DNA of 26,008 nt from a virus (Duplodnaviria; Caudoviricetes), in IMG/VR virus record IMGVR_UViG_3300017765_000043, positions 1 through 26,008 of that record. One strand, 5' to 3'. The translations under genes were made by a program, and so were the position numbers. The notes below the pieces were generated by a model. The model made no database searches and was not told the origin of the DNA. It was given only the letters and a program-made list of their open reading frames with translations. Below are positions 210 through 24,513 of the stretch, piece after piece (within the stretch, counting starts at the first letter, position 1; every line of letters starts with the position of its first letter).

Positions 210-3200
210 TTATTTTATTTTTCTTTTTACTATTGTTCTGCCTTTTCTTCTTTTTACTTGTTTTTCTTTTTTATCTTTTTCATTTTCTATTCCTAATTCC
301 CATGATCCCCATCCCATCAATAATGCCGTGCTTTGCCACCATTCTGCTTCATCACTCATTGCCGCTTCTATATTTTGTGCTTTTCTTAATGCTCTGTCTA
401 ATGGAACATTAGTTGTAGCAGATATTATATTCGCTCCCGCTGATAATGCTGGATTATCTAATTTAGGTTCAAATATGTTTTCAGGTGTTGTATAACCTAA
501 TGAATATCCTGCGCCTCTTAACTTACTTACTTTAGAATATATAGGGGGAGATATTGTTAATGCTTTCCACGCAGCATCTTGAAAATTAGGTCTTGGCCTA
601 TTCATTCTATTTGCAATATCCGTAGCTATATTTTTTACCGCCACAGCTGCATTACCAGTCATACCCATACCCCTTAATAATGAATCAGCCATACCATTAG
701 CTATTTGACTATATTTTTCAATTTCTTTTTCTTCTTCGTCATCTTCTGAAAATGCTAAAGCAAATAAAGCCTTTTGCATTGCATTAAATATTAAGTTTTG
801 TATTGTACTATAATATATTATTTTACTAACTTTTTCCATTCTATTGCCCCTACCAGCAACTAAATCTTGTGCATTCTTTTTAATAATTCTATTATACTGC
901 ATTGGTGTATTAGCAAAAGCTAAAAATAATCTACCAGCATTACTCGCCTGTTGTTCAGATATTCTATCAGGCCTACTTGATTGTTGTGTTTCTTCAGTTA
1001 TAGCTTTAAAATCTACAAATGCTTTTTCTGTAGCTTCAGTTTCAGATAAACCTTGCTTTATGTATGTTTTAATTCTATTTCTGTACATTGAAGCGCCACC
1101 TGATGCAATAGCAAAACTATCAGCTATTTTTGTAAATATAAATCCTTTATTTAATAATAAACTAATTGTTCCTTGTATTCCACCTTTTTCAGCAGCTAAT
1201 GCTAATTCACTTTCATTTACATTAATTTTATTACCACCTCTTCTTTCTTGCAAGTAATCTGAATTAAATATAGTTTTAAAATCAGACCAATATTGTTTTT
1301 GATTTGCAAATGCTTTTGCAGCCTGCAAAGGATTATTATCGCTGAAGTTTAAATAGTTTATGTTAGATATTGTCTGAAGTACAGCAGATCTGGTATTTAA
1401 GAACATGATTGCACCAACAGAACCATTTACCCAATCCAAATAAGATTGTAAAACTTTGTCACCACCCCATTTTCTATTTGAACCAATCTTCATTCTTTCT
1501 AAAGTTTTAGTTAAATTAGTTACCCATTCTTTACCGTAAGCTGCTTCTAGTTTATTTAAATTTTGTTTGTTAAATATTTGATCAACATTGTTTTGCCAAA
1601 CTTCTAAATGTTTACTTCTTTTAGATGAATTCATTAATGTTATTAAATCAGTAGCTATATTTCCAGCCATCCAATTATTTTCTGGTTTTTTATAACCATC
1701 ACCTTTAGTTATGCTTAATAACTCGTCAGCAAACTGCAATAATTCTTTATCGCTTTTAACTTCATTAATTAACTCTCTAGCATCTGTTTTAGATAACCCG
1801 GGAACTTTATTGCCCTGTCTAGCCCATATAAATGCTCTTACAGCCTGATCATTCGTAAAATCACCGCCTTTAGTAAATTGTTTTAATTTTTTAGGTACAT
1901 TGCTTAATTTTTTCTTCAATGCTCTAAAATCCTCAAACATTGCTGCTCTTTCTCGTGTTATGTTTTCATTAGCAACGTTATATGGTGTATATAAGTTATC
2001 TTGATAAAACTTTAATTGTTTTTCACCTTCTTTGCCTTTAGCTAATGTTTTATGCATCAAACCAGCAAAATCTTCAGCACCAGGTGGTACAAAATAATCG
2101 CCAAAACTTTTTCTTACTGTTTTTGCCCTTGCTTCTGCTTTAGCTTCACTAAATACTTTTTGTGCGCCTATACCTGTAGCTTTTTCTAAAAAGTTATTAA
2201 AATCTTTATTTAAATCTTTTGAATTATATTTTTCTTTAATTTTATTTTGTATTGTTTTTTCAACTTTTTCAACATTTTTAACAATATCAATATTACTTAT
2301 ATTTTCTTTGATATTTAAAATATTTTTAAGTCTTTGATTTGATTTTAATATAGGATTTTTAACGTTTTTTTCATATATAGAGTTATCAAAATTAGATTCT
2401 ACTAATAGATATTGTTCTGCTTGTTTTTTATTTTTAAATCTAAAATATTTAGAGGTATTAGTCCTACCTTCTTTATCTATTATATCAAATTGTTTTTTAT
2501 ATCCATAAATACCAGAAAAATCTTCTACAATATTAGAATCAAATTTACTAGAAATAATAGATAGTAAGCTTTCAAAGGACTGTTGGCTGCTGGATTTAAC
2601 ATGTTCTAATTTAATTGTTTTGCCGGCTTTGCCAAAATAAAACCCATTTAATATTACTAAATCTCTTTCTCCTTTAATATTACTAGAGTTAAATCTTTTT
2701 AATTTTATCATATAATCAAGCCTGGACTCAAATTCTTTTTGATTTTTAGAACTATATAGGTAGTCTGTTAAAAAATTATTAAAAGCATTATAAGTATTTT
2801 TAACATTAGTATTTTGTTGTTTTAATGCTTCTAAATTATTTTTAGCTATTTGTATTTTTTGTTCTTTTGTTTTAGCTTTTGAAATTTCTTCCTGTAATTT
2901 TTCAAATTTTGTTGCAGTTATAATTTCTGTTATATTATTAAATAAATTACTAGTTTTTTCAGAAATCCAATTTGCTTTTTTATTTTTTCCAAAATTATCA
3001 TAAAATTTTTGTGTTTTGCCATCCCCGGTTGATCTTCTATGATAACCAAATAATCCTGTAAAAAAAGTTTTATTACCTTTTAATAAATTACTATTCAAAG
3101 GTAATAATTCAGATAATTTTTCACTATGCCCTTTAAACTCATCAGTTATATTTTTATCATTTACATTTAGTCTATTTTTTGATATATTTTTTAAAGTTTC

Positions 3201-3239
3201 TGAATCTTTTAATTTAAAAGATAATTTATTTTTATCTAT
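210..3239 (-). CDS. C-terminal half of giant predicted ejection/internal virion protein (track ORF 210..3098; frame is open up to 3239)
   Basis: 962-aa track ORF with only a TTG start. The 47 codons upstream are stop-free and in frame with 3240..6131. Helical, with a C-terminal hydrophobic segment (IIYYSTIQNLIFNAMQKALFALAF). Last large gene of the tail operon. Confidence 0.7.
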   Translation of the reverse strand: MDKNKLSFKLKDSETLKNISKNRLNVNDKNITDEFKGHSEKLSELLPLNSNLLKGNKTFFTGLFGYHRRSTGDGKTQKFYDNFGKNKKANWISEKTSNLFNNITEIITATKFEKLQEEISKAKTKEQKIQIAKNNLEALKQQNTNVKNTYNAFNNFLTDYLYSSKNQKEFESRLDYMIKLKRFNSSNIKGERDLVILNGFYFGKAGKTIKLEHVKSSSQQSFESLLSIISSKFDSNIVEDFSGIYGYKKQFDIIDKEGRTNTSKYFRFKNKKQAEQYLLVESNFDNSIYEKNVKNPILKSNQRLKNILNIKENISNIDIVKNVEKVEKTIQNKIKEKYNSKDLNKDFNNFLEKATGIGAQKVFSEAKAEARAKTVRKSFGDYFVPPGAEDFAGLMHKTLAKGKEGEKQLKFYQDNLYTPYNVANENITRERAAMFEDFRALKKKLSNVPKKLKQFTKGGDFTNDQAVRAFIWARQGNKVPGLSKTDARELINEVKSDKELLQFADELLSITKGDGYKKPENNWMAGNIATDLITLMNSSKRSKHLEVWQNNVDQIFNKQNLNKLEAAYGKEWVTNLTKTLERMKIGSNRKWGGDKVLQSYLDWVNGSVGAIMFLNTRSAVLQTISNINYLNFSDNNPLQAAKAFANQKQYWSDFKTIFNSDYLQERRGGNKINVNESELALAAEKGGIQGTISLLLNKGFIFTKIADSFAIASGGASMYRNRIKTYIKQGLSETEATEKAFVDFKAITEETQQSSRPDRISEQQASNAGRLFLAFANTPMQYNRIIKKNAQDLVAGRGNRMEKVSKIIYYSTIQNLIFNAMQKALFALAFSEDDEEEKEIEKYSQIANGMADSLLRGMGMTGNAAVAVKNIATDIANRMNRPRPNFQDAAWKALTISPPIYSKVSKLRGAGYSLGYTTPENIFEPKLDNPALSAGANIISATTNVPLDRALRKAQNIEAAMSDEAEWWQSTALLMGWGSWELGIENEKDKKEKQVKRRKGRTIVKRKIK

Positions 3240-6131
3240 TTATTCATATAAATTAACTTTATTTATTTCAGAACTAAATCTACTCCCTTGTTTTCCTAAA
3301 TTAACTTGATTTTCTATTGCGTCTTTTATTGCAGAAGATAATTCATTAACATCTATACCTTCTAAATCATTTTCATTTTCTAAATAAGAATTAATAACAT
3401 CAACCGCAGCTTGTGATTGAGCACTAGTTACTTTGCCTTTTAATGATTTTTTAAAAGCTGTTATAGCTTTACTTATAGCTTCAGCAAAAGTATTACCTGC
3501 TTGAATTGCTGTTTTTAAAGTTTTAAGAGCAATTTTAACACCTTTTGTTATAGGTATTATTCCTGACTGGAGAGTTGTTTTTTCAAAAGTTTCTATTTGT
3601 TCTATTGCTCTATCTATTTTTTCTAATAACTTTGGTATTGCACCCTCAGGTATCTCTTTACCTTGCAGTTCTTGTCTTTCTAAAAATTCTTTTTGAACAT
3701 TAGGATCAGCTAAAACTTCTGCTATTGCATCTTTACCTATTTCTTGTGATAATATACTAGCTAACCTTTTCTTTTTAGCTCTTAAACCATTTAATGCACC
3801 TTCAGTATAAAAATTAATAAATTCTTGTTTAGTAGGTGTTTTATATTCAAATACGCCTTTACCAGCGGCATCACCTTCTTGCATTGTTTCTCTACCAACT
3901 TGCTTAGCCTCAAACAAAGCTAACTTATTTTTCACAGAATTAGGGATAGCTTTAATTATAGCATCGTAGTTAACATCCATAAATGTTGTAAACCTACTGT
4001 TTTGTTCTTGTTTATTATTAAAGTTGCCGCCCATTTCTTCAAGAACAGCATCAGCTATTTTAAAATCAGCAGCTTTATTTATAGCGGTTAGTATTTCATT
4101 TTTATCTCTACCGCTTTTTTCTATTATACCTGGTAATTTACCTTTTAATATTTGTGTAGCATCTTTTTGTACAGATTCTTTTGTAATGCCGGCTATATCT
4201 CTTAGCTGTTCTTTTGCTTTTGGCTCTGTTCTTACAAAATCTAAAACCTCTTGAGTAGTATCGTCTAATTCAATTCTTGATTCTCTTATTTCAGTTACAT
4301 CTTGTGTAAACTGTTCGCCTAACACTCTTTTCGATGCTTCTATAGCTCTAGCTGGTAAAAATTTATTTATATATCCTGCTAATGGTCTTCCGCTGTCTGG
4401 TTTATATTCTCTTATTAAATCTAAAATACCTCTTTCACCTGTTTCAATTTCATCTCTTAAAAGTTGTTCATCATAATTAGGTGCTTCTCTTCTTTTTCTT
4501 ACTAAATTATTGGTAATAGGTTTAAACTTTTCAAGTATTTCAAATGCCCCATCTACGCCTTTTTCGTCATATATTTTTTGTACTTCGTCAGATGCTTTTT
4601 TATTTTTACTTTCTTGTACTTTTTGTTTTACTTCTGTATTAGTAACATTAGGCCCAAAGTTTAACATTAATATAATGGCTTTTTGCTCGTTATATTGTTT
4701 GTCTACTTTTTTTTCTTGTTTGCTAATTATTTTATCAATTTGATCTTTTACTTCAACATCTTTAGCTAAATTTTTTTGTCTTTTTAATTCTGAAATTTTA
4801 AATTTATTTTCAACATATTCAGATAATTCAGTATTATCAAATGACTCAAGAACTTGTTTATTTAATATTTTGTTATTTACAACACTTTTTTGCAGCTCTA
4901 ATATTTCATCTAATATAGCTTCATTAGGAGCCTTAGCGTATAAATTTTCTAATTCTTTAATTTTTTTAGCGGACTCTAAAGTTTGTTTTGTTGCAGCAGT
5001 TGGAGAAAGTTTTTCTAATGTATAAGACTGCATAGGCGGGTTATTATTCATACTAGCCAAAGGTGCACCTATTATAAAACCTGTAATAAAAGTTTCAAAT
5101 CCTCTTTCTACTATATCTCCTACATTATAAGAACCATCTGGATTTCTATACATATCAATATTTCTATTATCCCCCCACTCATAATCTATACGTCTATTTA
5201 CTTCTTGCGCTAAATTTTCAGAAGCCCCTTCTAAAGTACCTCCTGTTATAACTTTTCCAGCTAAAGTTTTAGTAGCATTTTTATATAAATTTTTAGCAGC
5301 ATTAGGTGTTATTTTTGAAAAAACTGTATTACCAAATCCTTTTAAAATACCTCTTGTAACCAACTCGCTAACTAATTCCACCCCACCTTGACCTGTTGAT
5401 ATAGCTAATGTAGATAAATCACCTGCCGCGTTTGGGTCCGCATCTGTTTTTTCTTTATATGCACTTCCTGATGCAGAAGCAAATAATGTTGCCATTCCGG
5501 CAGGCCCCGCGAAAACAGACATCACACTAGGTAAAGCTTCTATAACATTATCTGTAATTTTATCTAAACCGTCTAAAGCATTTCCTTCTTCGCTAAAAAA
5601 TTCATCATATACAGATCTATCAGCTTCTTCATAAACAACATCTTTCATTTTGCTAGAAAGATCTTGAATTTTGCTAGTTCCAGCTCTTAAAGGTTCTAGT
5701 AGTCCTGTGAAATCTTCTTGTATATTATTTAAAAGCAGATTCTGTTGTTCCTGAGTAATTTTGCCTTGTTCAACTAATTGAGTAGATCTGTATTTTGTTG
5801 CTGTTTCAGATACACCTTTTATGTATTCTAAAGCTTTTGTACCAAAATCAGAAAGACTTGCCGCAAATCCAATTTGTTTTCTAAATGGAATAAAACTACC
5901 TGGAAGTCTTGTGCTAGCTAATTCTTTTAGTGAATCCGAAGAACCAGGATCCGAAGTGAAATCCATATCGGGCGCTACAGTTTCCTCCACAACCGCACCC
6001 GGTGTTGTGGGATCTGTCTTTCCCGGATCTCCATTTTTCATAATTTGAGCGCCGGGAGAAATAGAAACAAATTTATCTACTTCATTTTCAGGAACATCGT
6101 ATTCCTTATTATTATATAAAACTTTAATCAT
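3240..6131 (-). CDS. N-terminal half of giant predicted ejection/internal virion protein; contains sigma70 region-2-like segment
   Basis: 963-aa ORF with Gly/Ala-rich hydrophobic segments (ALPSVMSVFAGPAGMATLFASASG; FITGFIIGAPLA), coiled coils and a sigma-like motif at aa ~529-602. Position is equivalent to the largest podovirus ejection protein. Confidence 0.7.
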   Translation of the reverse strand: MIKVLYNNKEYDVPENEVDKFVSISPGAQIMKNGDPGKTDPTTPGAVVEETVAPDMDFTSDPGSSDSLKELASTRLPGSFIPFRKQIGFAASLSDFGTKALEYIKGVSETATKYRSTQLVEQGKITQEQQNLLLNNIQEDFTGLLEPLRAGTSKIQDLSSKMKDVVYEEADRSVYDEFFSEEGNALDGLDKITDNVIEALPSVMSVFAGPAGMATLFASASGSAYKEKTDADPNAAGDLSTLAISTGQGGVELVSELVTRGILKGFGNTVFSKITPNAAKNLYKNATKTLAGKVITGGTLEGASENLAQEVNRRIDYEWGDNRNIDMYRNPDGSYNVGDIVERGFETFITGFIIGAPLASMNNNPPMQSYTLEKLSPTAATKQTLESAKKIKELENLYAKAPNEAILDEILELQKSVVNNKILNKQVLESFDNTELSEYVENKFKISELKRQKNLAKDVEVKDQIDKIISKQEKKVDKQYNEQKAIILMLNFGPNVTNTEVKQKVQESKNKKASDEVQKIYDEKGVDGAFEILEKFKPITNNLVRKRREAPNYDEQLLRDEIETGERGILDLIREYKPDSGRPLAGYINKFLPARAIEASKRVLGEQFTQDVTEIRESRIELDDTTQEVLDFVRTEPKAKEQLRDIAGITKESVQKDATQILKGKLPGIIEKSGRDKNEILTAINKAADFKIADAVLEEMGGNFNNKQEQNSRFTTFMDVNYDAIIKAIPNSVKNKLALFEAKQVGRETMQEGDAAGKGVFEYKTPTKQEFINFYTEGALNGLRAKKKRLASILSQEIGKDAIAEVLADPNVQKEFLERQELQGKEIPEGAIPKLLEKIDRAIEQIETFEKTTLQSGIIPITKGVKIALKTLKTAIQAGNTFAEAISKAITAFKKSLKGKVTSAQSQAAVDVINSYLENENDLEGIDVNELSSAIKDAIENQVNLGKQGSRFSSEINKVNLYE
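5969..6024 (-). promoter_or_regulatory. Predicted programmed -1 ribosomal frameshift signal: slippery G_GGA_AAG plus H-type pseudoknot
   Basis: Minus strand reads GGGAAAG-ACAGATC-CCACAAC-AC-CGGGTGC-G-GTTGTGG-AGGAAACTGTA-GCGCCCG. The heptamer is in X XXY YYZ phase (CCG GGA AAG). Stem 1 is CCACAAC/GTTGTGG; stem 2 is CGGGUGC/GCGCCCG. Confidence 0.75.
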
Positions 6132-6133
6132 AA

Positions 6134-7564
6134 TTAATTTTCTATTAGAAATTGATTTCTATAATTATCTTGAAATTTAGCATATGCTTCATCTATATTT
6201 TTCTTACTTTGCAATTTTGTTTTTTGTGCAGAAGAATATTTTGTAGCATCTATTATTTCAGTAAAAAATTGTCCAAATTTTTCTCTATTGGTTAAATCTA
6301 TTGATTGATCTTTTTCTTCTGGTAATTTAAGAACTATTTTTGATATATCATCTGGCTCTCCGGGTCTTAGCGGTCCAAAAGGAATTGGTCTATCATATCT
6401 AGCTCCAAAACCTTCTTCAGTAACGCTTTTTATTACTATATCACTATACATACCCGCTGGATCCATCAAAAATTCTTCAGTAAATTCATTAATATCTTTT
6501 TCTTCTGTATCTTCTTTACTTTCAGTACTTGATATTTTATCACCAACTCGTGGAACTTTTTCTAATATTTTATCAGTAAAAGCTTCTTTTACTTTATTTG
6601 TTTGTTCAGGCGTACCTTCCCAAGAGCCATAGCCATATCTTTCTCCATTTTCATCAACTAGAATATCTTCATAAATTTGTTTACCTCTTGTATTAATTAT
6701 ATCCGTGCTAAAATCTTTAGTTAATGTTTGTTTCCAAGTGTTAATATTATTATCTGTTAAATATCTATAACCATTTTTTGCACCAGTAGCAAAAGCTTTT
6801 CCATCTTTAGTTAAATTTGCAGCATATTTATCTATTGATCCTTGATCTTGTTCCCAGGAATATTTTGTTTGGGGTCGATATAAATTTTTATCATCAAATA
6901 TATCAGACATTTTCATGCTTACTTTATTCATAGGTATGTCATCAATATTTTTATAAGAACCATCCATGTATTTATCAAAATCAACTTCGTAATATTCTAT
7001 ATATGGCTGTAAATCTTCATCATAAGAAACATTAAAATTACTATTAACTAATGCTTTATCTCTTGACCATAGTTTGAAATCTTTATCGCTTTCTCTAATT
7101 TGTGTTATACTAGGCATTTCACCCTCAGCTTTTTCTTTTACCCAATTAGCAGCGCTTTCTGAAATTAATAAAGCATTGTTTAATTTATTTTTCATCGCAG
7201 AATGACCATCAAAATCCAAAACAGTTCCATCTTTTCTTGGTTTTTGTGTTTTAAAATCTACTTCATTTTGGTACCACATGTTTGCCAATTCATTATATGA
7301 TTGCTGTGTTTGCTCTCCTGGGTTAGGATTGGCTTTATATAAAGAATTTTTATATTTTAATTGGCTGTCTAAAGCATCTGCTTTTATTTTATTTAATTTA
7401 GCAGCATCTTGTTGTTTTTTTAATTTATTAGTTTGTACAACTTTTGCAACAGCTATTGCTCCACCAGCTAACGCTTCTCCAAAACCACCCTTATATCTTA
7501 TAGGTGTAGGATTTGCATATGCTCCGTAGTTATATGATCCGGGTGTTACTCTTGGTAATGCCAT
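6134..7564 (-). CDS. Predicted ejection/internal virion protein (476 aa)
   Basis: N-terminal Gly/Ala hydrophobic stretch (GGFGEALAGGAIAVA) followed by a coiled coil. Lies between the small and giant predicted ejection proteins. Confidence 0.55.
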   Translation of the reverse strand: MALPRVTPGSYNYGAYANPTPIRYKGGFGEALAGGAIAVAKVVQTNKLKKQQDAAKLNKIKADALDSQLKYKNSLYKANPNPGEQTQQSYNELANMWYQNEVDFKTQKPRKDGTVLDFDGHSAMKNKLNNALLISESAANWVKEKAEGEMPSITQIRESDKDFKLWSRDKALVNSNFNVSYDEDLQPYIEYYEVDFDKYMDGSYKNIDDIPMNKVSMKMSDIFDDKNLYRPQTKYSWEQDQGSIDKYAANLTKDGKAFATGAKNGYRYLTDNNINTWKQTLTKDFSTDIINTRGKQIYEDILVDENGERYGYGSWEGTPEQTNKVKEAFTDKILEKVPRVGDKISSTESKEDTEEKDINEFTEEFLMDPAGMYSDIVIKSVTEEGFGARYDRPIPFGPLRPGEPDDISKIVLKLPEEKDQSIDLTNREKFGQFFTEIIDATKYSSAQKTKLQSKKNIDEAYAKFQDNYRNQFLIEN

Positions 7565-7576
7565 AATTATATTTAT

Positions 7577-8173
7577 TTAAGGGTTTTTAAAGAAACTAGC
7601 AGCGGAATCTATTAAACTGGTTGTATTAGTGCCCATTGCGCCTAAAGCATCAGCTCTTTGTTGCCCAAATTGTTGTACTAAACTAGCTTGCCTAGACAAA
7701 TCAGCAACATTTCTTTGTTCTCGAGCTTGAAATTGGAATGTTTTACCTAATATATCAGCTTCTTGTATTCTTTCAGACTGCGCTATTCTTTGCTGTTGAG
7801 CAAACTGTTCCCCTTGTGCTCTTAATCTAGTGTTTTGCGCTTCTTGTTGTTCTATTGTAGAGCTAACACTCATTTTGCTTCTTAATGCCGCCTGTGCTAA
7901 CGCTGTTGCTCCACTAGCCCCAGCACCTGTAGCTCTTAGCGTATCTAATGTGTTTGCTAAAGATATATCAGTTTCTTCAGCTTGCATTTCAGCTGCTTTA
8001 GTTGCAACCTGTAAATTAGCAAATGGATTACTTACCATATTACTTAAATCAGTTACATTTTCATAAGGGTTTATTATAGGCTGCCTATCTTTAACAAGTT
8101 TATTTAATGCATCCTGAGCTTTGCCCTGTTGCTTTCTTGCTTTGCCCGCATTTATTGCACTGAATATTGCCAT
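7577..8173 (-). CDS. Small Ala/Gln-rich predicted ejection (DNA-transfer) protein (198 aa)
   Basis: Helical Ala/Gln-rich sequence with an ATGAGASGATALAQAA glycine-zipper-like motif. Follows the GNAT-like gene, as in podovirus tail operons. Confidence 0.6.
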   Translation of the reverse strand: MAIFSAINAGKARKQQGKAQDALNKLVKDRQPIINPYENVTDLSNMVSNPFANLQVATKAAEMQAEETDISLANTLDTLRATGAGASGATALAQAALRSKMSVSSTIEQQEAQNTRLRAQGEQFAQQQRIAQSERIQEADILGKTFQFQAREQRNVADLSRQASLVQQFGQQRADALGAMGTNTTSLIDSAASFFKNP

Positions 8174-8176
8174 TTG

Positions 8177-8575
8177 TTATAAATTTTTTATTATTTCGTA
8201 CGATGGTTTTTCATCAACTAACCATCCTAATTTTTTATGTAAGTTTATTAAACTTTTGTGTCTGCCAATCGTAAATACATGTTTTATACCTTGATCTTTT
8301 AAAACACGCTCTACAGCTTGAATTAAGAGCGTTATCGCGTCTTTTCTGTCACTTTCTCTATATTCTGGATTAGATATTATCCATTCAAGTAAAGCGGCCT
8401 TAGAATTGGTCATATATACATAACCTGCTACTATACCAACATTATTTTTTTCAACTATAAAACCAGTATCTGGTAAAAAAGTTTTAGGAGGGGCTTGCCA
8501 TTCCGGCCATGCATCCCACCATTTCACTAGTGTACTGTAGTCCTCATCATTGAGTCTACGAATATTTAATTTCAT
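8177..8575 (-). CDS. GNAT-fold (acetyltransferase-like) protein
   Basis: 132 aa with an N-terminal IRRL..EDY..L pattern, ISNPEYR (motif A-like) and LHKKLGW (motif B-like). Confidence 0.7.
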   Translation of the reverse strand: MKLNIRRLNDEDYSTLVKWWDAWPEWQAPPKTFLPDTGFIVEKNNVGIVAGYVYMTNSKAALLEWIISNPEYRESDRKDAITLLIQAVERVLKDQGIKHVFTIGRHKSLINLHKKLGWLVDEKPSYEIIKNL

Positions 8576-9863: not shown

Positions 9864-12800
9864 TTAACCTATTTGTTTTACTACAACAACACCACTACTA
9901 GTTGTTTTGAATACAAATAATGGCTCATTAGCTTGGCAATAGGAAGGACCACACATAGAATGGAAATTTCCGCCTGATCCGTTTGAAGCAGCCCCACTGT
10001 TAAATACAGCTGTTCCTGTTGCTGAGTCGTAAACAGTATCTCCTATTTCAGGTAAATTACCAGCAGGATTGCCGCTTGTATTTTCAAAATAAACTTGCAC
10101 AAGCGTTGGTTCATTTACAGCAGTAGACGCAGATGTATAACCACTATTACTTCTCCAAAAAGCTGTTCTTGATGCAGAGCTAACGGTTATGCTTAAAGTA
10201 TCTGAAGCTGTAGCATTTGCAATATCAGAAACTTGAATTGTTAATGTATAAGAATCACCTGATGTTACACTAGAGGCTGTACTTAGTACTCCTGTAGAGG
10301 CATTTATACTAAATTTACCAGCGCTATTACCACTTGTAATAGAAAATGTTAAATTATTAGTATTTGCACTTGTTTTGGCACTTCCGTTTGTACCTGTTAT
10401 TGTTCTAATTGCTGTTCCAGATATTGTAGATGCTGGTATAGTTAAAGCAATACCTACATTTATTGTTGGGTTGCTATTTGTAACGGATATAGATTTATCT
10501 TGTATTAAAGTATTTCCTCCATTATCTGTAACTTTTATTCTTATAGTATAATCATCTGTATTTGTATTTGTAAATTCAAATGCTTCACCAGTTAATAAAT
10601 TACTTCCGCTTATTGTAAACGCGCCGGATCTGTTTGTTCCATTTGCATCTGTTATAGATATAATAGTATAAGATGGTGTATTTACAGGATTACTATTTGT
10701 GTCTGTTGATGTTATTGCAGCTACAGTGCCACCGCTTGCTGTTGCTTCTGCAAAAGATGAAGCTGATAAAGCTATACTTGAAGGCACAACACCTAATGTT
10801 TCTGTTATAGCAGCATTTAAATGTGAAACTAAACCGGCTGTTGAAGTTACATAATAAATATCTAAAGCAGATTTAAAAGGATCAGTTTCTAATACAACTA
10901 AATTATCAAAAGTAGTGCTAGAAGCGTGATTTCTTCCATATCCATCTGGCAATTCAGCCAATAAAGGTCCTTTTTCATTTAAATAAAATTCATCAGTACT
11001 ACTTGAACCAAACCCCTGTTCTTGGTTAGTTCCAATTGAAATAACATCAATAAATGAATTTCCTGATTGTTGTGTTTGTGTACCAGTTAAATCTAATATT
11101 TTAGGTAATAGTCTAGTTTGTGAACCTTGCGTACCTGTTTCGGTATTGACATCAGTTACGTCTCTAGGCACTTTATTTACATTGTCTCCATGCAACACTA
11201 GCCATGATCTTACATTACTTGTGGGTATATTATCAACTATTGTTGGAGCATATACATTATAATATTCTTGTTCCGATTGTTTAATTACAACTTTATAAGA
11301 ATACCAACCTAACGGATTTGTATCTGCTTGATAAGCATCGCCTATTGTATTATTAAAAGTAATTTTTAGTGCAGAGTGTGTCCAAGAACTTGCTCCATTT
11401 GTAACAGTTCCTGTTTTAGGGTCTACAAATGTAGTGCTAGTCGTTGGTAAAAATACTGTTGATTGTCTTCCATATCTATCAGATAAAACTAAGCCAACAG
11501 AATATTCTCTATTTGATTTTACTGAAGATAATAAATATTGATCATTGAATTTTGTTTGATCACCATTTGTTATTAAAAATGAACTTTTATTAACGGCAGT
11601 ATCTAATGATCTATTTTGTTTAAAATTACCATAAATAACTCTATTTCCACTAACCTCTTGTGCATGAGCTTTTACAGGTATAACATCTGAAATTCTAATT
11701 AATTCAGATTCTGGTAAAGTTTGTATAGGCTTTATTGAGTTATATATATATTTATAACCATATATTAATTTACTAATATTGTTAGATATAGGCTCAACCC
11801 TATGCGTTATATCGCTTTTAATTTCATTAAAATTTAAAGTTTCTACAACTTTCAAAGCGGCACTATCCGATTCAGAATATAATATTTGTATTTTTTTAAT
11901 TTGCATTTTATCATCATAATCAGCTACATTATTAAAAAAATATAATCTTGTGTTATTTATAATTGATGGTGAAACACTAGTACTTGTAGTTAATGTTGTT
12001 GTTTTATTTCCACCATTTACAATATATTCATCACCTTTAGCAGTTAATAAAATATCATTATCAGATATTGAACCATTAGGATTATCTATATTATGACTAG
12101 TACCAGTTAATATTCCATTTGCATCACACGCACCAACATTTGATTTGTCAATATTAGAAGGCAAATCAATAAATAAAGCAACTCTATTAGCTAGATTTTG
12201 CATTGATTCCACTATTGTTTCTTTTACAGCGTTACTTTCATCTGTAGATGACAATATACCCGCGTCGTTCGCAACAAAAGTTGCATTATTAAAATTTTTA
12301 CCTTTACCGGGATGAAAGCAAGTTTGTGTAAATGGGGATATTAACGAATATTCATTATTTTCATATTGAAATCTATACGCGAATTTAACAAATTTATCTC
12401 TTATATGCAAACTACCGACATCAGAGCTGCTCTCAGCGCTCATGGTAACCTTAGGGGGAGATGGCGGAGAATATTGTGCAACACTAATTTTATCTTCTAA
12501 ATAATTATCATTAAGATAAAAAGTGCCAATAGCCTGTCCTGTTGCTTGAGATAAATTTATTCTTCTTGGTTGATTATAATTATCAGTCCAAAATAGTAAA
12601 TTATCAATTAAATTAACATGTAATACAGGATGATTTTTTGAAAAATTTAATCTAAAGCTATCTATTATAGCTTGCGGAGAGGTATTTGGTTGATTTGCAT
12701 TCCAATAATATATAGCGCAAACTGTAGGAGTGCCGTTTATACTTGATGTAGCATATGACATATCTTTAGAACTTACAGTATCATTGCCTGTAAAATTTGT

Positions 12801-15769: not shown

Positions 15770-15800
15770 GATATAATATAATAAAAATGTTAATAGAGGT

Positions 15801-15832
15801 AAAAATTACCCCCGTAGTTACAACGAGGGTAA
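15801..15832 (-). terminator. Intrinsic terminator downstream of major capsid gene
   Basis: UUACCCUCGU-UGUAACU-ACGGGGGUAA (10-bp stem, one G-U pair) followed by UUUUU, 15 nt after the capsid stop codon. Confidence 0.8.
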
Positions 15833-21002: not shown

Positions 21003-23216
21003 TTATTGTATTATTTTTGAAAAATTGCCTTTATTATCATATTTAGCAAAACTAAAGTTTACTTTATTTTTTAATTGTGTGCTAGGTTTTGGTGTGTATA
21101 AGTTTTTATTGCATGCCATAATAGCAAGCCCTGAACTTATCGCAGCATCAAATTTTGTTCTTTTATTTATATCAAATTTAGCCCAATCATTTAATGTTTC
21201 ATTAAAATATAAATCACCGTAATCGCCATCTGTTTTAATTCCTACATATGAATTTATATAACTTTCAATTGCAGCAGCATGCGCTTGTCTAATGTCTTCG
21301 CTTGAGTTTGGTATACCACCTATCTCTTTTTCAGCAGCTGATAGTTTATTCCAGACTTTATCAGGCCTATTAATTGAATAACCTCTATAACCTCTTCTTT
21401 TTAAATAGTATAACAATCTTGGTTTATTATTTTCTGCAAGTATTGGCATACCATAAAAGTGTAATGCCATAAGTATATCTTCAAAAAACATCTCCGCTGT
21501 TTGCGGCCTAGCTATATATTCTAAAAAAAATCTATTTGTGGGAGCTTCTTCCATACTAAATTTAGTAAGGCCATGCAGTGATCCTTTAGAACCTTTGCCA
21601 TCAGTAGTTCCAGATATATCATAACTATCACAGCCAAAAGCACCAACATGTTCATTTCCTGGGTGCTTGGTTCCATTTTTTACAATTACTCTATTTTGTA
21701 AATTTTTACCTGGTACCCAGCTTACATTAAATCTACCATTTAAATTTGGTACAAATTCTACTTTCGAATCTTTGATCCCATTTTCCCACTGAAAACTGCC
21801 GCGAGTAACAAGAGCAGAGTATCTAGCTTCTTCATTAAAATCAATTTGTTCGTAAATCTTAGCAAGATTAAATATGCTATTTTTAGTTTCATCTCTGAAA
21901 GCATGCTCTTCAGTCCTAGGAAATTGTCTATAAAATTCATTTAAACCGTCTTGATCTCCTTTTAATCCAGCAACTTCATTTTCCCAGTGTTCAATAACCC
22001 CGACATCAATAAGTTCTCCGAAATTATCTTCGACTGCTTTTTTTGGTGTATTGAATACAGGTAATCCATAAGAATCAATGAATCCTTCGAAGTTCCATTC
22101 CATAGGTATGAACAAACTATAGAGTCCTGAACGAGTTTGTCCATTACGGTTTCTTTTTGTGACATTTGAGTCATTGTATAATTTTTTAAAATTTTCACCA
22201 CCTTTGTCTAATGAGTTACTTGTTGAGCCCATCATACATTTACCAATAACTCTTGAGCCTAATCTTAACGTGGTTTTTGTAACTCTCCAGTTGTTGAGTA
22301 TGTTCTCGGGCCTCTCCCATTTACCTGCTTCATCGTGGACGAGGAGGGAAAGCTTTTCACCGTCGTACGAGTTATCTCCTGTGTTTTTCCAGTCGATGGT
22401 AGTATCCAGCCCTGAGAGCTCCTCGGTCCTTTGGTTTGTGAGTATACTCTTTTTTGTAAATTTACTTGCGGGTACACGATAAGCCAATTCTGTCTTAGGT
22501 CTATCCATTCCATCTTGTATGGGTTTAAAAAAGAATGGGTAATTAACGGATATTGGTACGACTTTATCTGTAAACATTTTTTTTGCATCAGATCCTGATT
22601 TTGATAATATACCAAACCTAGAGTCTGAAGAGATGGTAGCTTGGTTAACAGTCTCTGCCGATGCCATGAATGAAAAGCCACTCCGTCTATTTTTGAGGTA
22701 GCACATTCCGTAGCATCTTGTATCTGCTTTGCAAGCTTCCCAGAATATAAAGAATAATCTATTTGCTTCTCTGAAGTCTGGAGCACCCACGTCGATTTTA
22801 GTCCATTGCAGGTACATATAATGAGAGCCAGTGATATAAGTAGGAACATTTTTGTTATAGAACCAATAACCTTCATCACGTTTGGTAAATTCACTATTAA
22901 TATGCCCATTCCATTTTTCTTTAAAATTATTTGGTAAATCTTTCCAGTCAAATATAGTTTTTAATTTTTCTAACTCTTTTGGATAATCTGATTTAGTCCA
23001 TTTATTTTTTCCACTATTCAAATTTTTTGGCACCGGCGGTAATGCTATTTTTAAATTTTGTATATCATATATTTCACCAACCTGTCCAGTGTGACTAATA
23101 ACAACTACATCATAATCTTTATCGTAGCCATATTTCCACTTTTTTGCTTTATTAAGTCTTTTAATAGTATTTATTTTTATAGGCTCTATAACGCGATATA
23201 ACGATTGATTATACAT
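21003..23216 (-). CDS. terL: Terminase large subunit
   Basis: Walker A-like LKNRRSGFS, Walker B LLVHDEAGKW, coupling motif MGSTSN, nuclease motifs FGCDSYD and FDAAISSG. Confidence 0.93.
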   Translation of the reverse strand: MYNQSLYRVIEPIKINTIKRLNKAKKWKYGYDKDYDVVVISHTGQVGEIYDIQNLKIALPPVPKNLNSGKNKWTKSDYPKELEKLKTIFDWKDLPNNFKEKWNGHINSEFTKRDEGYWFYNKNVPTYITGSHYMYLQWTKIDVGAPDFREANRLFFIFWEACKADTRCYGMCYLKNRRSGFSFMASAETVNQATISSDSRFGILSKSGSDAKKMFTDKVVPISVNYPFFFKPIQDGMDRPKTELAYRVPASKFTKKSILTNQRTEELSGLDTTIDWKNTGDNSYDGEKLSLLVHDEAGKWERPENILNNWRVTKTTLRLGSRVIGKCMMGSTSNSLDKGGENFKKLYNDSNVTKRNRNGQTRSGLYSLFIPMEWNFEGFIDSYGLPVFNTPKKAVEDNFGELIDVGVIEHWENEVAGLKGDQDGLNEFYRQFPRTEEHAFRDETKNSIFNLAKIYEQIDFNEEARYSALVTRGSFQWENGIKDSKVEFVPNLNGRFNVSWVPGKNLQNRVIVKNGTKHPGNEHVGAFGCDSYDISGTTDGKGSKGSLHGLTKFSMEEAPTNRFFLEYIARPQTAEMFFEDILMALHFYGMPILAENNKPRLLYYLKRRGYRGYSINRPDKVWNKLSAAEKEIGGIPNSSEDIRQAHAAAIESYINSYVGIKTDGDYGDLYFNETLNDWAKFDINKRTKFDAAISSGLAIMACNKNLYTPKPSTQLKNKVNFSFAKYDNKGNFSKIIQ

Positions 23217-23488
23217 TACTTAGATCTTCTTTCAGCAAAGCCTTTAAATGACTCTGGTTTTTCTTCTATATTTCTTCCCTCAAGTAATGCTTTTTCAATT
23301 TCAATTCTATTTAAAATCTCGAACGCATCGAATATTGCAAGCTTTTTAGTTGCTGCAGCATTTTTTAATCTATCGGCTGAAACATCATCTTCAGTTTCAA
23401 TTATAGGTTCTTTAGCTACTTTTATAAGTTCGTTAACTGCTCTATAGCCAGCTTGGATTATATTCTCTTTCTGTTCCTTCGCGTTCAT
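23216..23488 (-). CDS. Terminase small subunit (predicted); true start probably ATG at 23488 (90 aa), not the track start at 23575
   Basis: MNAKEQKENIIQAG...DRLKNAAATKKLAIFDAFEIL...GFAERRSK. Small helical protein whose stop overlaps the terL start (TAATG). Confidence 0.6.
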   Translation of the reverse strand: MNAKEQKENIIQAGYRAVNELIKVAKEPIIETEDDVSADRLKNAAATKKLAIFDAFEILNRIEIEKALLEGRNIEEKPESFKGFAERRSK

Positions 23489-24026
23489 ACTTAATAGATA
23501 TTGAATTTGTTGGTACTCTATACATTCTCTCACCGTCAACAATAAATTCATATTCACTGCTTGGTGTAAAACCAACTAAATCTTCTTTTTGTATATCTTT
23601 AAGTTTTTTATCAATATACTTTATAATACCACGTAAGGGTATTTCTTTTTCAATAACATCATTTGATTCAATTGGTTTAACAAAACAAAAATCTTTAGGC
23701 GCTTGCCATTTATGATTTCGTTTATATAAAAATATTTGATCTAATGTTACAAAGTATTTGTCTTCTTTATAGTAACTTCTACTATTTTTTTCAATACCTC
23801 TAACATCATACCATCTCCTAAAAACATTATGATGTACAATAACTTCATCACCAACTTGCATTTCAGTTTTCTGTAATTTAGGTGTTGCTACCACTATAGC
23901 ATTACGACTAACATATTGATGGCTAGAAATTTCTGTATTTAACAATAATTCTTGGCCGTCAATATATTTTTTATTATCGTATCTTTCGTTTTTAGGTTTA
24001 ACTATAAAGTTAAATAAACTTTGCAT
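23442..24026 (-). CDS. GroES/Cpn10-like co-chaperonin, apparently two tandem domains
   Basis: FIVKP...AIVVATP...VGDEVIVH, repeated as FVKP...RGIIKY...EDLVGF...EFIVDGERMYRV; both follow the Cpn10 pattern. Confidence 0.6.
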   Translation of the reverse strand: MQSLFNFIVKPKNERYDNKKYIDGQELLLNTEISSHQYVSRNAIVVATPKLQKTEMQVGDEVIVHHNVFRRWYDVRGIEKNSRSYYKEDKYFVTLDQIFLYKRNHKWQAPKDFCFVKPIESNDVIEKEIPLRGIIKYIDKKLKDIQKEDLVGFTPSSEYEFIVDGERMYRVPTNSISIKYEREGTEREYNPSWL

Positions 24027-24245
24027 TAATATTGTAAATTATATTCAACAGCTATAGCCATATTTTTATTAAAATCTTTCCACGGTAATATTTCGTTATT
24101 TTTTTTTAATATAAATAGAAAACTTATTATCTTTTTCTACAATGTCACATATTACGTGCCCACCATATACTTCTTGCCCTACTGCGTAGTGCATAGCGTC
24201 ATTTTTATAATCTCTACCTATACTAATTTTTCTTACCAATGACAT
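24026..24245 (-). pseudogene. Small phage protein (72 aa if corrected) interrupted by one extra A in an A9 run
   Basis: MSLVRKISIGRDYKNDAMHYAVGQEVYGGHVICDIVEKDNKFSIYIKK stops at 24098-24096. Removing one A continues NNEILPWKDFNKNMAIAVEYNLQY to a TAA that overlaps the next ATG (TAATG). Confidence 0.7.
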
Positions 24246-24249
24246 GATT

Positions 24250-24513
24250 TTATTCTACTACTTCGGGTTCTACAACCTCTTTTTCTTCAATTGGTTTGTA
24301 GGTTCCGTCCTGGATATTGATTTGTACTTTACCATACTTTTCTTCCAATTTCGTTTGGAATTTGTTTAAATCAGATTGAACCTCAGTAGCAGCATGATTA
24401 ATCTGGTGCTTTTGTAATTCGAGGTTTCCAATTTGCGTTGCCGCATTGTTTAGTTTCCCTACATATCCTTGTAGTTCTTCTAATTGTTCTGGTGTAATTT
24501 TGTTTTCATTCAT
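24250..24513 (-). CDS. Small coiled-coil protein (87 aa)
   Basis: Heptad-rich helix followed by LEEKYGKVQINIQDGTY. Follows an AT-rich intergenic region. Confidence 0.7.
   Translation of the reverse strand: MNENKITPEQLEELQGYVGKLNNAATQIGNLELQKHQINHAATEVQSDLNKFQTKLEEKYGKVQINIQDGTYKPIEEKEVVEPEVVE

Follow-up and report, generated by a model that had tools for sequence, protein, structure and literature searches.

The window analysed here, that is the whole 26,008-nucleotide stretch at positions 1 to 26,008 of the virus record IMGVR_UViG_3300017765_000043 (Caudoviricetes), carries on its minus strand a giant gene whose 5' end in all likelihood contains a programmed −1 frameshift site, operated in this virus by the ribosome. 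Ribosomes would meet the slippery heptamer G GGA AAG with a pseudoknot downstream, and some of them would slip back by one base and end at a TAG in the −1 frame, yielding a hidden protein of 72 residues besides the giant one. The shift rate would fix the ratio of short to giant product, and the short product with its aromatic tail may help to load or eject the giant protein. Leaving any docking role aside, we consider it highly likely that recoding takes place and yields a functional short protein. A reading made from the letters of the window alone (hereafter the sequence-only reading) had proposed that a pseudoknot-assisted, programmed −1 shift yields a second, short product, and its core stands: comparative sequence data show that the site is kept in relatives, that both stems covary and that the −1 frame is under purifying selection.

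Codons 36–38 of the giant gene read CCG GGA AAG, which places the heptamer at 6024–6018 in X XXY YYZ phase, exactly as had been proposed. The −1 frame then runs for 34 residues to a TAG at 5916–5914, giving a predicted product of 38+34 = 72 amino acids. In-phase heptamers are common by themselves, numbering 103 in 17 open reading frames (ORFs) of the AT-rich window. No run of nine or more A or T was found at the frame change in the window; since no homopolymer there is long enough for polymerase slippage, the shift would be ribosomal.

Behind the heptamer, the proposed H-type pseudoknot was recovered with a spacer of 7 nucleotides (nt), a stem 1 of 7 base pairs, a 2-nt loop 1, a stem 2 of 7 base pairs and an 11-nt loop 3, but it also has a 1-nt loop 2 (position 5994) that had gone unmentioned. 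According to a purpose-made detector, which scores the stacking of perfect-helix H-type pseudoknots, it is the best such structure on either strand of the 26-kb window (score −29.1), and when the downstream 85 nt were dinucleotide-shuffled 1000 times, a score this good came up only once. A nested fold of the site without pseudoknots was not significant (z −0.71), and Rfam returned no match for the element at gathering score. In a MAFFT alignment of 37 sequences, comprising the window and 36 of the 65 relatives with a detected pseudoknot, 96.8% of 562 cells are paired and 11 of 16 pairs show two-sided changes; none of 500 shuffles paired as highly, and slid controls paired at 30–53%. A peptide-anchored count at the variable pair of stem 2, which is less circular, gave 27 G-C, 18 A-U, 3 G-U, 4 A-C and 7 others in 59 sequences, and the sequences of stem 1 are wholly different between lineages. 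The two checks on structure that the sequence-only reading had set beforehand, pseudoknot-aware folding and stem covariation in relatives, both came out in its favour.

Conservation was assessed in an unbiased set: 372 viral loci had homology to the far C-terminus of the giant protein, and the best 80 of them were taken. Sixty-five of the 80 have a full-length gene (63 distinct), and 15 were dropped because of a contig end or an interruption; four of these 15 still carry upstream what we term the cassette, a −1 ORF ending in the conserved motif. Among the 63 distinct full-length homologs the cassette is present in 43, of which 30 have a strict heptamer within the −1 ORF and seven a GGA/GGU-type site. 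The conserved in-phase slip site that was to be looked for is there in the sense that its position is fixed, while the heptamer itself is replaced by other slip-prone ones (G GGA AAG, G GAU UUU, G GAA AAG, A AAU UUU). In E. coli, as passages of PMC5009743 state, the tendency to shift on G GGA AAG is high, and G GAU UUU is known as a shift site in an umbravirus. On a tree of the C-terminal domain the presence of the cassette requires eight changes and the site type switches repeatedly; the two rows nearest to the window, which itself has G GGA AAG, carry G GAU UUU. This is a quick tree whose site labels follow the first listed heptamer, which makes a few of them (L039, L083) incorrect or doubtful.

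For features other than the motif, whose invariance would here be partly circular, we used a pooled set of the unbiased loci, two motif-pattern scans and stem-pattern loci, amounting to at least 263 cassettes, or at least 235 at 90% identity. G GGA AAG far exceeds expectation in this set (Table 1), and a pseudoknot score of −20 or better is reached by 57 of 163 non-poly-A cassettes as compared to 0.4% of 3260 shuffles. The predicted short products measure 56–135 amino acids (median 82). The two motif patterns gave at least 111 and at least 114 distinct matches in viral contigs; among the matches listed, the 0 frame underneath is long or open for 110 of 111 and for 114 of 114, and its ATG lies within 130 codons for 109 and 113. 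Several unrelated types of N-terminal domain precede the cassette, and the slip site is where one type is swapped for another. Exchange of N-terminal domains and of the sequence behind the motif at the cassette (P0002–P0004, L002/L031, phi13:2 versus phi18:3) makes the gene a mosaic in which the cassette behaves as a recombination joint. On its reverse strand, a contig (L231) assigned to a Flavobacteriales metagenome-assembled genome carries a full cassette, which is a weak hint at the host group.

The −1 frame peptide is under purifying selection. We compared 39 distinct 13-codon blocks spanning the motif; they come from the unbiased set, where among 44 candidates 4 did not match the search pattern. 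Over seven core columns, the entropy at −1 codon positions 1, 2 and 3 is 0.17, 0.31 and 1.21 bits. On a spanning tree of the blocks, the ratio of nonsynonymous to synonymous change (pN/pS) is 0.31 in the −1 frame, with 112 of 240 changes synonymous against 22% expected; in the 0 frame it is 1.66, with 38 of 240 against 24%. Over the motif the 0 frame alternates between T and M, S and L, T, I and G, or E, V, A and D, and it uses rare codons there: ACG for 29 of 29 Thr and TTG for 18 of 18 Leu, each with a background of 7%. Only 2 of 235 cassettes have an ATG, GTG or TTG in the −1 frame before the motif, and in 98 of 224 a −1 stop lies within two codons before the site; therefore, independent initiation of the −1 frame is excluded and the entry point is pinned. 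The sequence-only reading had named loss of heptamer and stems in relatives, and early −1 stops, as findings that would speak against it; at the sequence level none of these was found, the cassettes showing a kept slip site, covarying stems and an open −1 frame under purifying selection.

A second class of cassettes has an A run in place of the heptamer. Runs of A9–A10 occur in 50 of 235 cassettes, as compared to one run of nine or more in 471 kb of the remainder of the same genes. None of the 51 cassettes with A AAA AAA passed the pseudoknot score, and the run often lies just 4–10 codons before the motif. According to passages of PMC5009743, efficient slippage of bacterial RNA polymerase occurs on runs of nine A or T. 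Since one added A leads into the −1 frame, this class probably uses transcriptional slippage, the alternative being a ribosomal shift on A AAA AAA. A run of A9–A11 is present near the start of the giant gene in all nine GenBank relatives examined, eight of them cultured. As judged mostly by eye, the −1 tails of these relatives keep a basic character and a richness in aromatic residues and Gly, but most have diverged; when the tail profile was compared with elemoA, the Manatee Spring contig and Panino, only Panino scored (E 0.003). For gp101 of phi38:1, the predicted −1 frame tryptic peptide behind the A10 run is AFGIEFYLWSGSFK. The records with an out-of-frame A9 are annotated as a small gene followed by a shortened giant gene, and in Pachyviridae and Panino the A9 may reflect either an undercall or obligatory slippage. 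Panino was sequenced by Nanopore only, as stated in PMC11590407, which makes an undercall likely, and obligatory slippage was not adopted as the explanation. One contig (L354, motif at 1072–1103, minus strand) has an A8 variant with the motif in frame with the ATG and the giant ORF out of frame, possibly an error.

Table 1. Features of the giant gene and its 5' cassette in the window, and A runs in GenBank relatives
Feature	Record	Position	Strand	Basis or remark
Giant gene, ~1970 codons, probable virion cargo/ejection protein	window	210..6131	-	one in-frame TAA; synteny with Elemovirus, phi38:1, phi18:3
First 38 codons, common to giant protein and predicted short product; N-terminal domain exchanged among relatives	window	6018..6131	-	
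Slippery heptamer G GGA AAG, in phase	window	6018..6024	-	in 74/235 cassettes vs 0.05 expected
7-nt spacer	window	6011..6017	-	5-7 nt in all 65 relatives listed
Stem 1, 5' strand	window	6004..6010	-	perfect-helix detector, covariation
Stem 2, 5' strand; also codes G-C in −1 frame	window	5995..6001	-	detector, covariation
Stem 1, 3' strand	window	5987..5993	-	detector, covariation
Stem 2, 3' strand, after 11-nt loop	window	5969..5975	-	detector, covariation
Predicted −1 frame tail, 34 codons + TAG	window	5914..6018	-	
CxCxxxC in −1 frame	window	5977..5997	-	only CxC conserved, mainly in pseudoknot class
Conserved −1 frame motif YGxxxG[RK][YW]FFG[IF]T, predicted beta-hairpin	window	5929..5967	-	motif conservation, pN/pS; model of proxy protein
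A10 run, in frame	phi38:1, elemoA, Gundel			
A11 run	Manatee Spring contig			
A9 run, start codon out of frame with giant ORF	phi13:2 (L478)	24119-24400		
A9 run, start codon out of frame with giant ORF	phi18:3 (L480)	7310-7640		
A9 run, start codon out of frame with giant ORF	phi46:3 (L482)	8119-8440		
A9 run, start codon out of frame with giant ORF	phi19:3 (L483)	10056-10380		
A9 run, start codon out of frame with giant ORF	Panino (L475)	~23720-23900	-	

What is conserved in the tail is its end. The −1 frame closes with YGxxxG[RK][YW]FFG, in which the Y, G, G, F and G positions are invariant in the unbiased set, and the 34-residue tail has a median net charge of +5 and is rich in aromatic residues and Gly. 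A structure model, obtained for P0031, a proxy and probable indel variant (15-row alignment), with a mean predicted local distance difference test score of 67.6 and a predicted template modelling (pTM) score of 0.33, shows a helical N-domain, a disordered, low-confidence linker holding the Cys residues and a C-terminal two-strand hairpin over the motif; Foldseek returned no fold match for it. By analogy with lambda G/GT, but with the shift placed at the beginning of the gene, we tentatively suggest, at somewhat less than an even chance, that the short and giant products co-assemble via their shared N-terminal domain and that the hairpin binds a partner in the capsid, the portal or tail, or the membrane. 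The sequence-only reading had it that diverted ribosomes set the amount of the giant protein. A shift would indeed fix the ratio, but mere tuning of the amount is insufficient, since it leaves the selection at the peptide level unexplained.

If the shift is real, the short product could act on membranes rather than as an assembly adaptor, as a cationic beta-hairpin peptide by which the outer membrane is breached during ejection or lysis. The tail may resemble hairpin antimicrobial peptides, and its charge, its aromatic and Gly-rich composition and the predicted C-terminal hairpin would suit such a role, as would the location of the giant gene behind two smaller genes whose syntenic counterparts are phi18:3 virion proteins. 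However, the invariant Y, G, G, F and G speak for a specific partner rather than a bilayer, and the cassette is absent from 20 of the 63 homologs, so that we regard this explanation as unlikely. Less probable still is that the tail acts on the ribosome or on proteases, by arrest at the −1 stop or as a C-terminal degron, and that the cassette only limits or times synthesis of the giant protein. The −1 stop does lie at a nearly fixed distance from the motif, 14–17 codons behind its Tyr in 203 of 235 cassettes, and the preceding N-terminal domains are mutually unrelated; yet the full range of the spacing is 13–32 codons, arrest peptides usually allow less variation than this, and a basic C-terminus is not a typical degron.

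The sequence-only reading had expected a conserved C..C/WFFG peptide and a metal- or membrane-binding Cys/aromatic tail, and of this the aromatic part held up, while the Cys cluster turned out to be conserved only in part. On this view the short product would be a metal binder or chaperone like CopA(Z), which is reportedly essentially an N-terminal metal-binding domain, with the Cys cluster as its working part. CxC is indeed found in 154 of 235 cassettes as compared to 7.8% of background windows, and the variation in stem 2 falls on the wobble position of the Gly codon in G-C-x-C. Its occurrence depends on the class, however: 66 of the 67 cassettes in which a pseudoknot was detected have CxC, as do 72 of the 106 in which none was, but it is present in only 2 of 50 poly-A cassettes, which keep the aromatic motif. 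The third Cys of CxCxxxC is not conserved and L092 and L098 have no Cys, so that no Cys ligand set is common to all members, unlike in a CopA(Z)- or metallothionein-like metal binder. Moreover, both Cys codons lie inside stems, whose RNA structure can account for part of their conservation, and the Cys region is of low confidence in the P0031 model. Since CxC is far from universal, above all among the poly-A cassettes, and the third Cys is not conserved, a metal cluster would be at most accessory, and the conserved core of the tail is the C-terminal aromatic motif; a CopA(Z)-like function is thus quite improbable. It is highly improbable that there is no recoding and that the −1 peptide is the shadow of a Ser/Asp/Thr-rich linker over a conserved DNA or RNA element (joint, binding site or structure): N-terminal modules are exchanged right at the cassette, as at a recombination joint, and Ser-Ser-Asp codons read automatically as Phe-Phe-Gly in the −1 frame, but substitutions are synonymous in the −1 and not in the 0 frame, varied slip-prone heptamers and A9–A10 runs alternate at one position, and in many cassettes the −1 frame is open from precisely the site to just behind the motif.

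Several observations weigh against a functional short product made by frameshifting, and against its docking role. Twenty of the 63 homologs, the degenerate L097 counted among them, have no cassette; these 20 contain no G GGA AAN and no A run of nine or more in their first 160 codons, and no copy of the motif was found in the DNA fetched around them. Therefore, the short product is either dispensable in some lineages or made elsewhere. In L097 (4603–4728) the pseudoknot and an A GUA AAG are kept while the tail motif is degenerate, possibly an intermediate of decay. In six of the 43 cassettes of the unbiased set the only sites are imperfect ones, for example A GUA AAG or A ACU UUU, and the shift-proneness of G GGA AAG is known from E. 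coli, whose tRNA-Lys set may not be that of the host. The rows of the covariation alignment were selected for the pseudoknot and are mutually related, with relatedness uncorrected. For 106 of the 163 non-poly-A cassettes the strict detector finds no perfect-helix pseudoknot; since only 57 pass its score, many would have bulged or other structures, or none. The tail has no match in Pfam, PHROGs or PDB, so that no family, PDB or fold match speaks for docking, and the model has a pTM of only 0.33 and is that of a proxy. The frameshifting, the ejection role and the function of the short product are all inferred.

The window is a linear virus record, 42% complete, and likely derives from a marine Flavobacteria-type phage. 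Terminase, portal and virion genes all lie on its minus strand. In GenBank, capsid and portal are closest to a Manatee Spring podovirus contig, Maribacter phage Panino, Elemovirus, and Cellulophaga and Tenacibaculum phages, with which the window shares a gene order that ends in two smaller genes and then the giant gene; this podovirus order agrees with that of phi38:1, phi18:3, Elemovirus and Panino. The giant gene is the last and largest of three genes behind the tail genes. In phi18:3, gp120, gp121 and gp123 are annotated as virion proteins from tandem mass spectrometry, and gp123 is syntenic with the giant gene. Searches with the giant protein gave no match in PHROGs, Pfam, PDB or cultured phages, and its nearest named Atlas cluster, LPD38 (0.94, 147 shared features), is a lead only. 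The label 'ejection gene' is thus based on gene order and on virion proteomics of the syntenic phi18:3 gene but not on homology to a known ejection protein, and the giant product is a probable ejection protein by inference from position. The sequence-only reading had overlooked an in-frame TAA at 3242–3240 (minus strand) that splits the giant gene in the window assembly. At this place L001 reads a sense codon, and so do contigs of runs X2 and X4; therefore, the TAA is a variant or an assembly error, and the giant gene is one ORF in the population. The giant ORF is broken further downstream in L040, L058, L073, L088 and L095, four of which still have the 5' cassette. Elsewhere on the minus strand, a strong hairpin at 15800–15832 directly behind the stop of the probable major capsid gene is likely a terminator, and two ORFs before the terminase (23216–23575 and 23442–24026) overlap by 134 nt if the listed TTG start is used, an overlap that a later ATG probably removes.

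Three further readings were rejected. A profile search yielded 22 standalone in-frame short proteins (58–131 amino acids), which we do not count as evidence of natural fusion. For P0029, traced to five loci of which two were read, the giant frame is open and the tail lies in the −1 frame, so that P0029 is an indel variant; 9 of 10 proteins looked up are single-member clusters. Most of the 120 motif-pattern matches in GTDB (L228–L347) belong to one bacterial enzyme with the hairpin YGxxxG[KR]CFFGESM, presumably Leu/Phe-tRNA-protein transferase (Aat). This likeness is of marginal significance and is probably convergence, as only a 15-column hairpin motif aligns and no whole enzyme domain; the hhalign P of 7e-7 holds for one profile pair in a set chosen by pattern, and a tail profile search of 1.84 billion proteins returned no Aat. 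No support was found for N-domains going together with particular ends of the gene upstream, as 201 of 227 pairs with similar N-domains differ in their upstream ends.

The lambda G/GT heptamer is presumably the same G GGA AAG as that of the window. According to passages of PMC5009743, lambda gpG/gpGT resembles the cassette in being a ratio-setting −1 shift in phage morphogenesis that joins a shared domain to a new-frame part. The lambda shift, however, lies near the 3' end, extends its product and belongs to long-tailed phages, whereas the cassette shifts at codon 38 of ~1970, truncates, uses a pseudoknot and sits in a podovirus-type cargo gene; neither its position nor the gene order (major tail, chaperone, tape measure in long-tailed phages) fits the G/GT family. 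Capsid and tail extensions in T7, T3, Lactobacillus A2 and Listeria A118 and PSA, described in the same source, likewise recode virion genes, some with pseudoknots, but at the 3' end, where they add a domain, often Ig-like, whereas the cassette ends the protein at its 5' end. As far as passages of PMC6771820 go, E. coli copA is alike in that an early −1 stop gives a short functional protein, CopA(Z), from the 5' part of a long gene; unlike the gene of this bacterial copper pump, the cassette adds a selected 34-residue −1 tail. In dnaX, a short isoform arises beside the long one (gamma/tau) by a ribosomal shift in E. coli and by slippage on 9 A/T in T. thermophilus (passages of PMC5009743), but the E. 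coli site lies far inside a cellular gene, relies on a stem-loop and meets its stop one codon later, with no conserved new peptide. Finally, carboxysome csoS2 (Cso2A/B) shares with the cassette a 3' structure, the lack of a Shine-Dalgarno stimulator, and two forms that work inside a shell, as described in that source, but serves a cellular organelle. We found no description of the cassette in the searched literature, which was mainly open-access and without supplements, where genome-wide frameshift prediction tables could list it.

Taken together, most of the frameshifts known in phages act at the 3' end, where they lengthen tail chaperones or capsid and tail proteins, whereas the cassette would truncate a giant cargo gene at its 5' end. 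Its −1 peptide is invisible to gene callers and matched no family in Pfam, and it is widespread, with at least 235 non-redundant cassettes, so that Bacteroidota phages provide slip sites and pseudoknots in a natural series. Switching between a pseudoknot frameshift and A-run slippage would repeat the dnaX story inside one virus group. The cultured and globally abundant phi38:1 has the A10 form, and RNA sequencing data of infection (SRP066570, SOLiD) as well as proteomes (PXD066074 / MSV000098485) are public. The cassette would also explain why the giant gene is annotated as split in phi13:2, phi18:3, phi19:3, phi46:3 and Panino. It is conceivable, though rather doubtful at this breadth, that Pervagoviridae, Pachyviridae, Elemovirus and hundreds of uncultured flavobacterial podoviruses hide a small virion or assembly protein with a swappable N-domain and a conserved beta-hairpin, made via pseudoknot frameshifting or A9–A11 slippage, and that in Pachyviridae the giant protein would come only from slipped transcripts, with three products per run.

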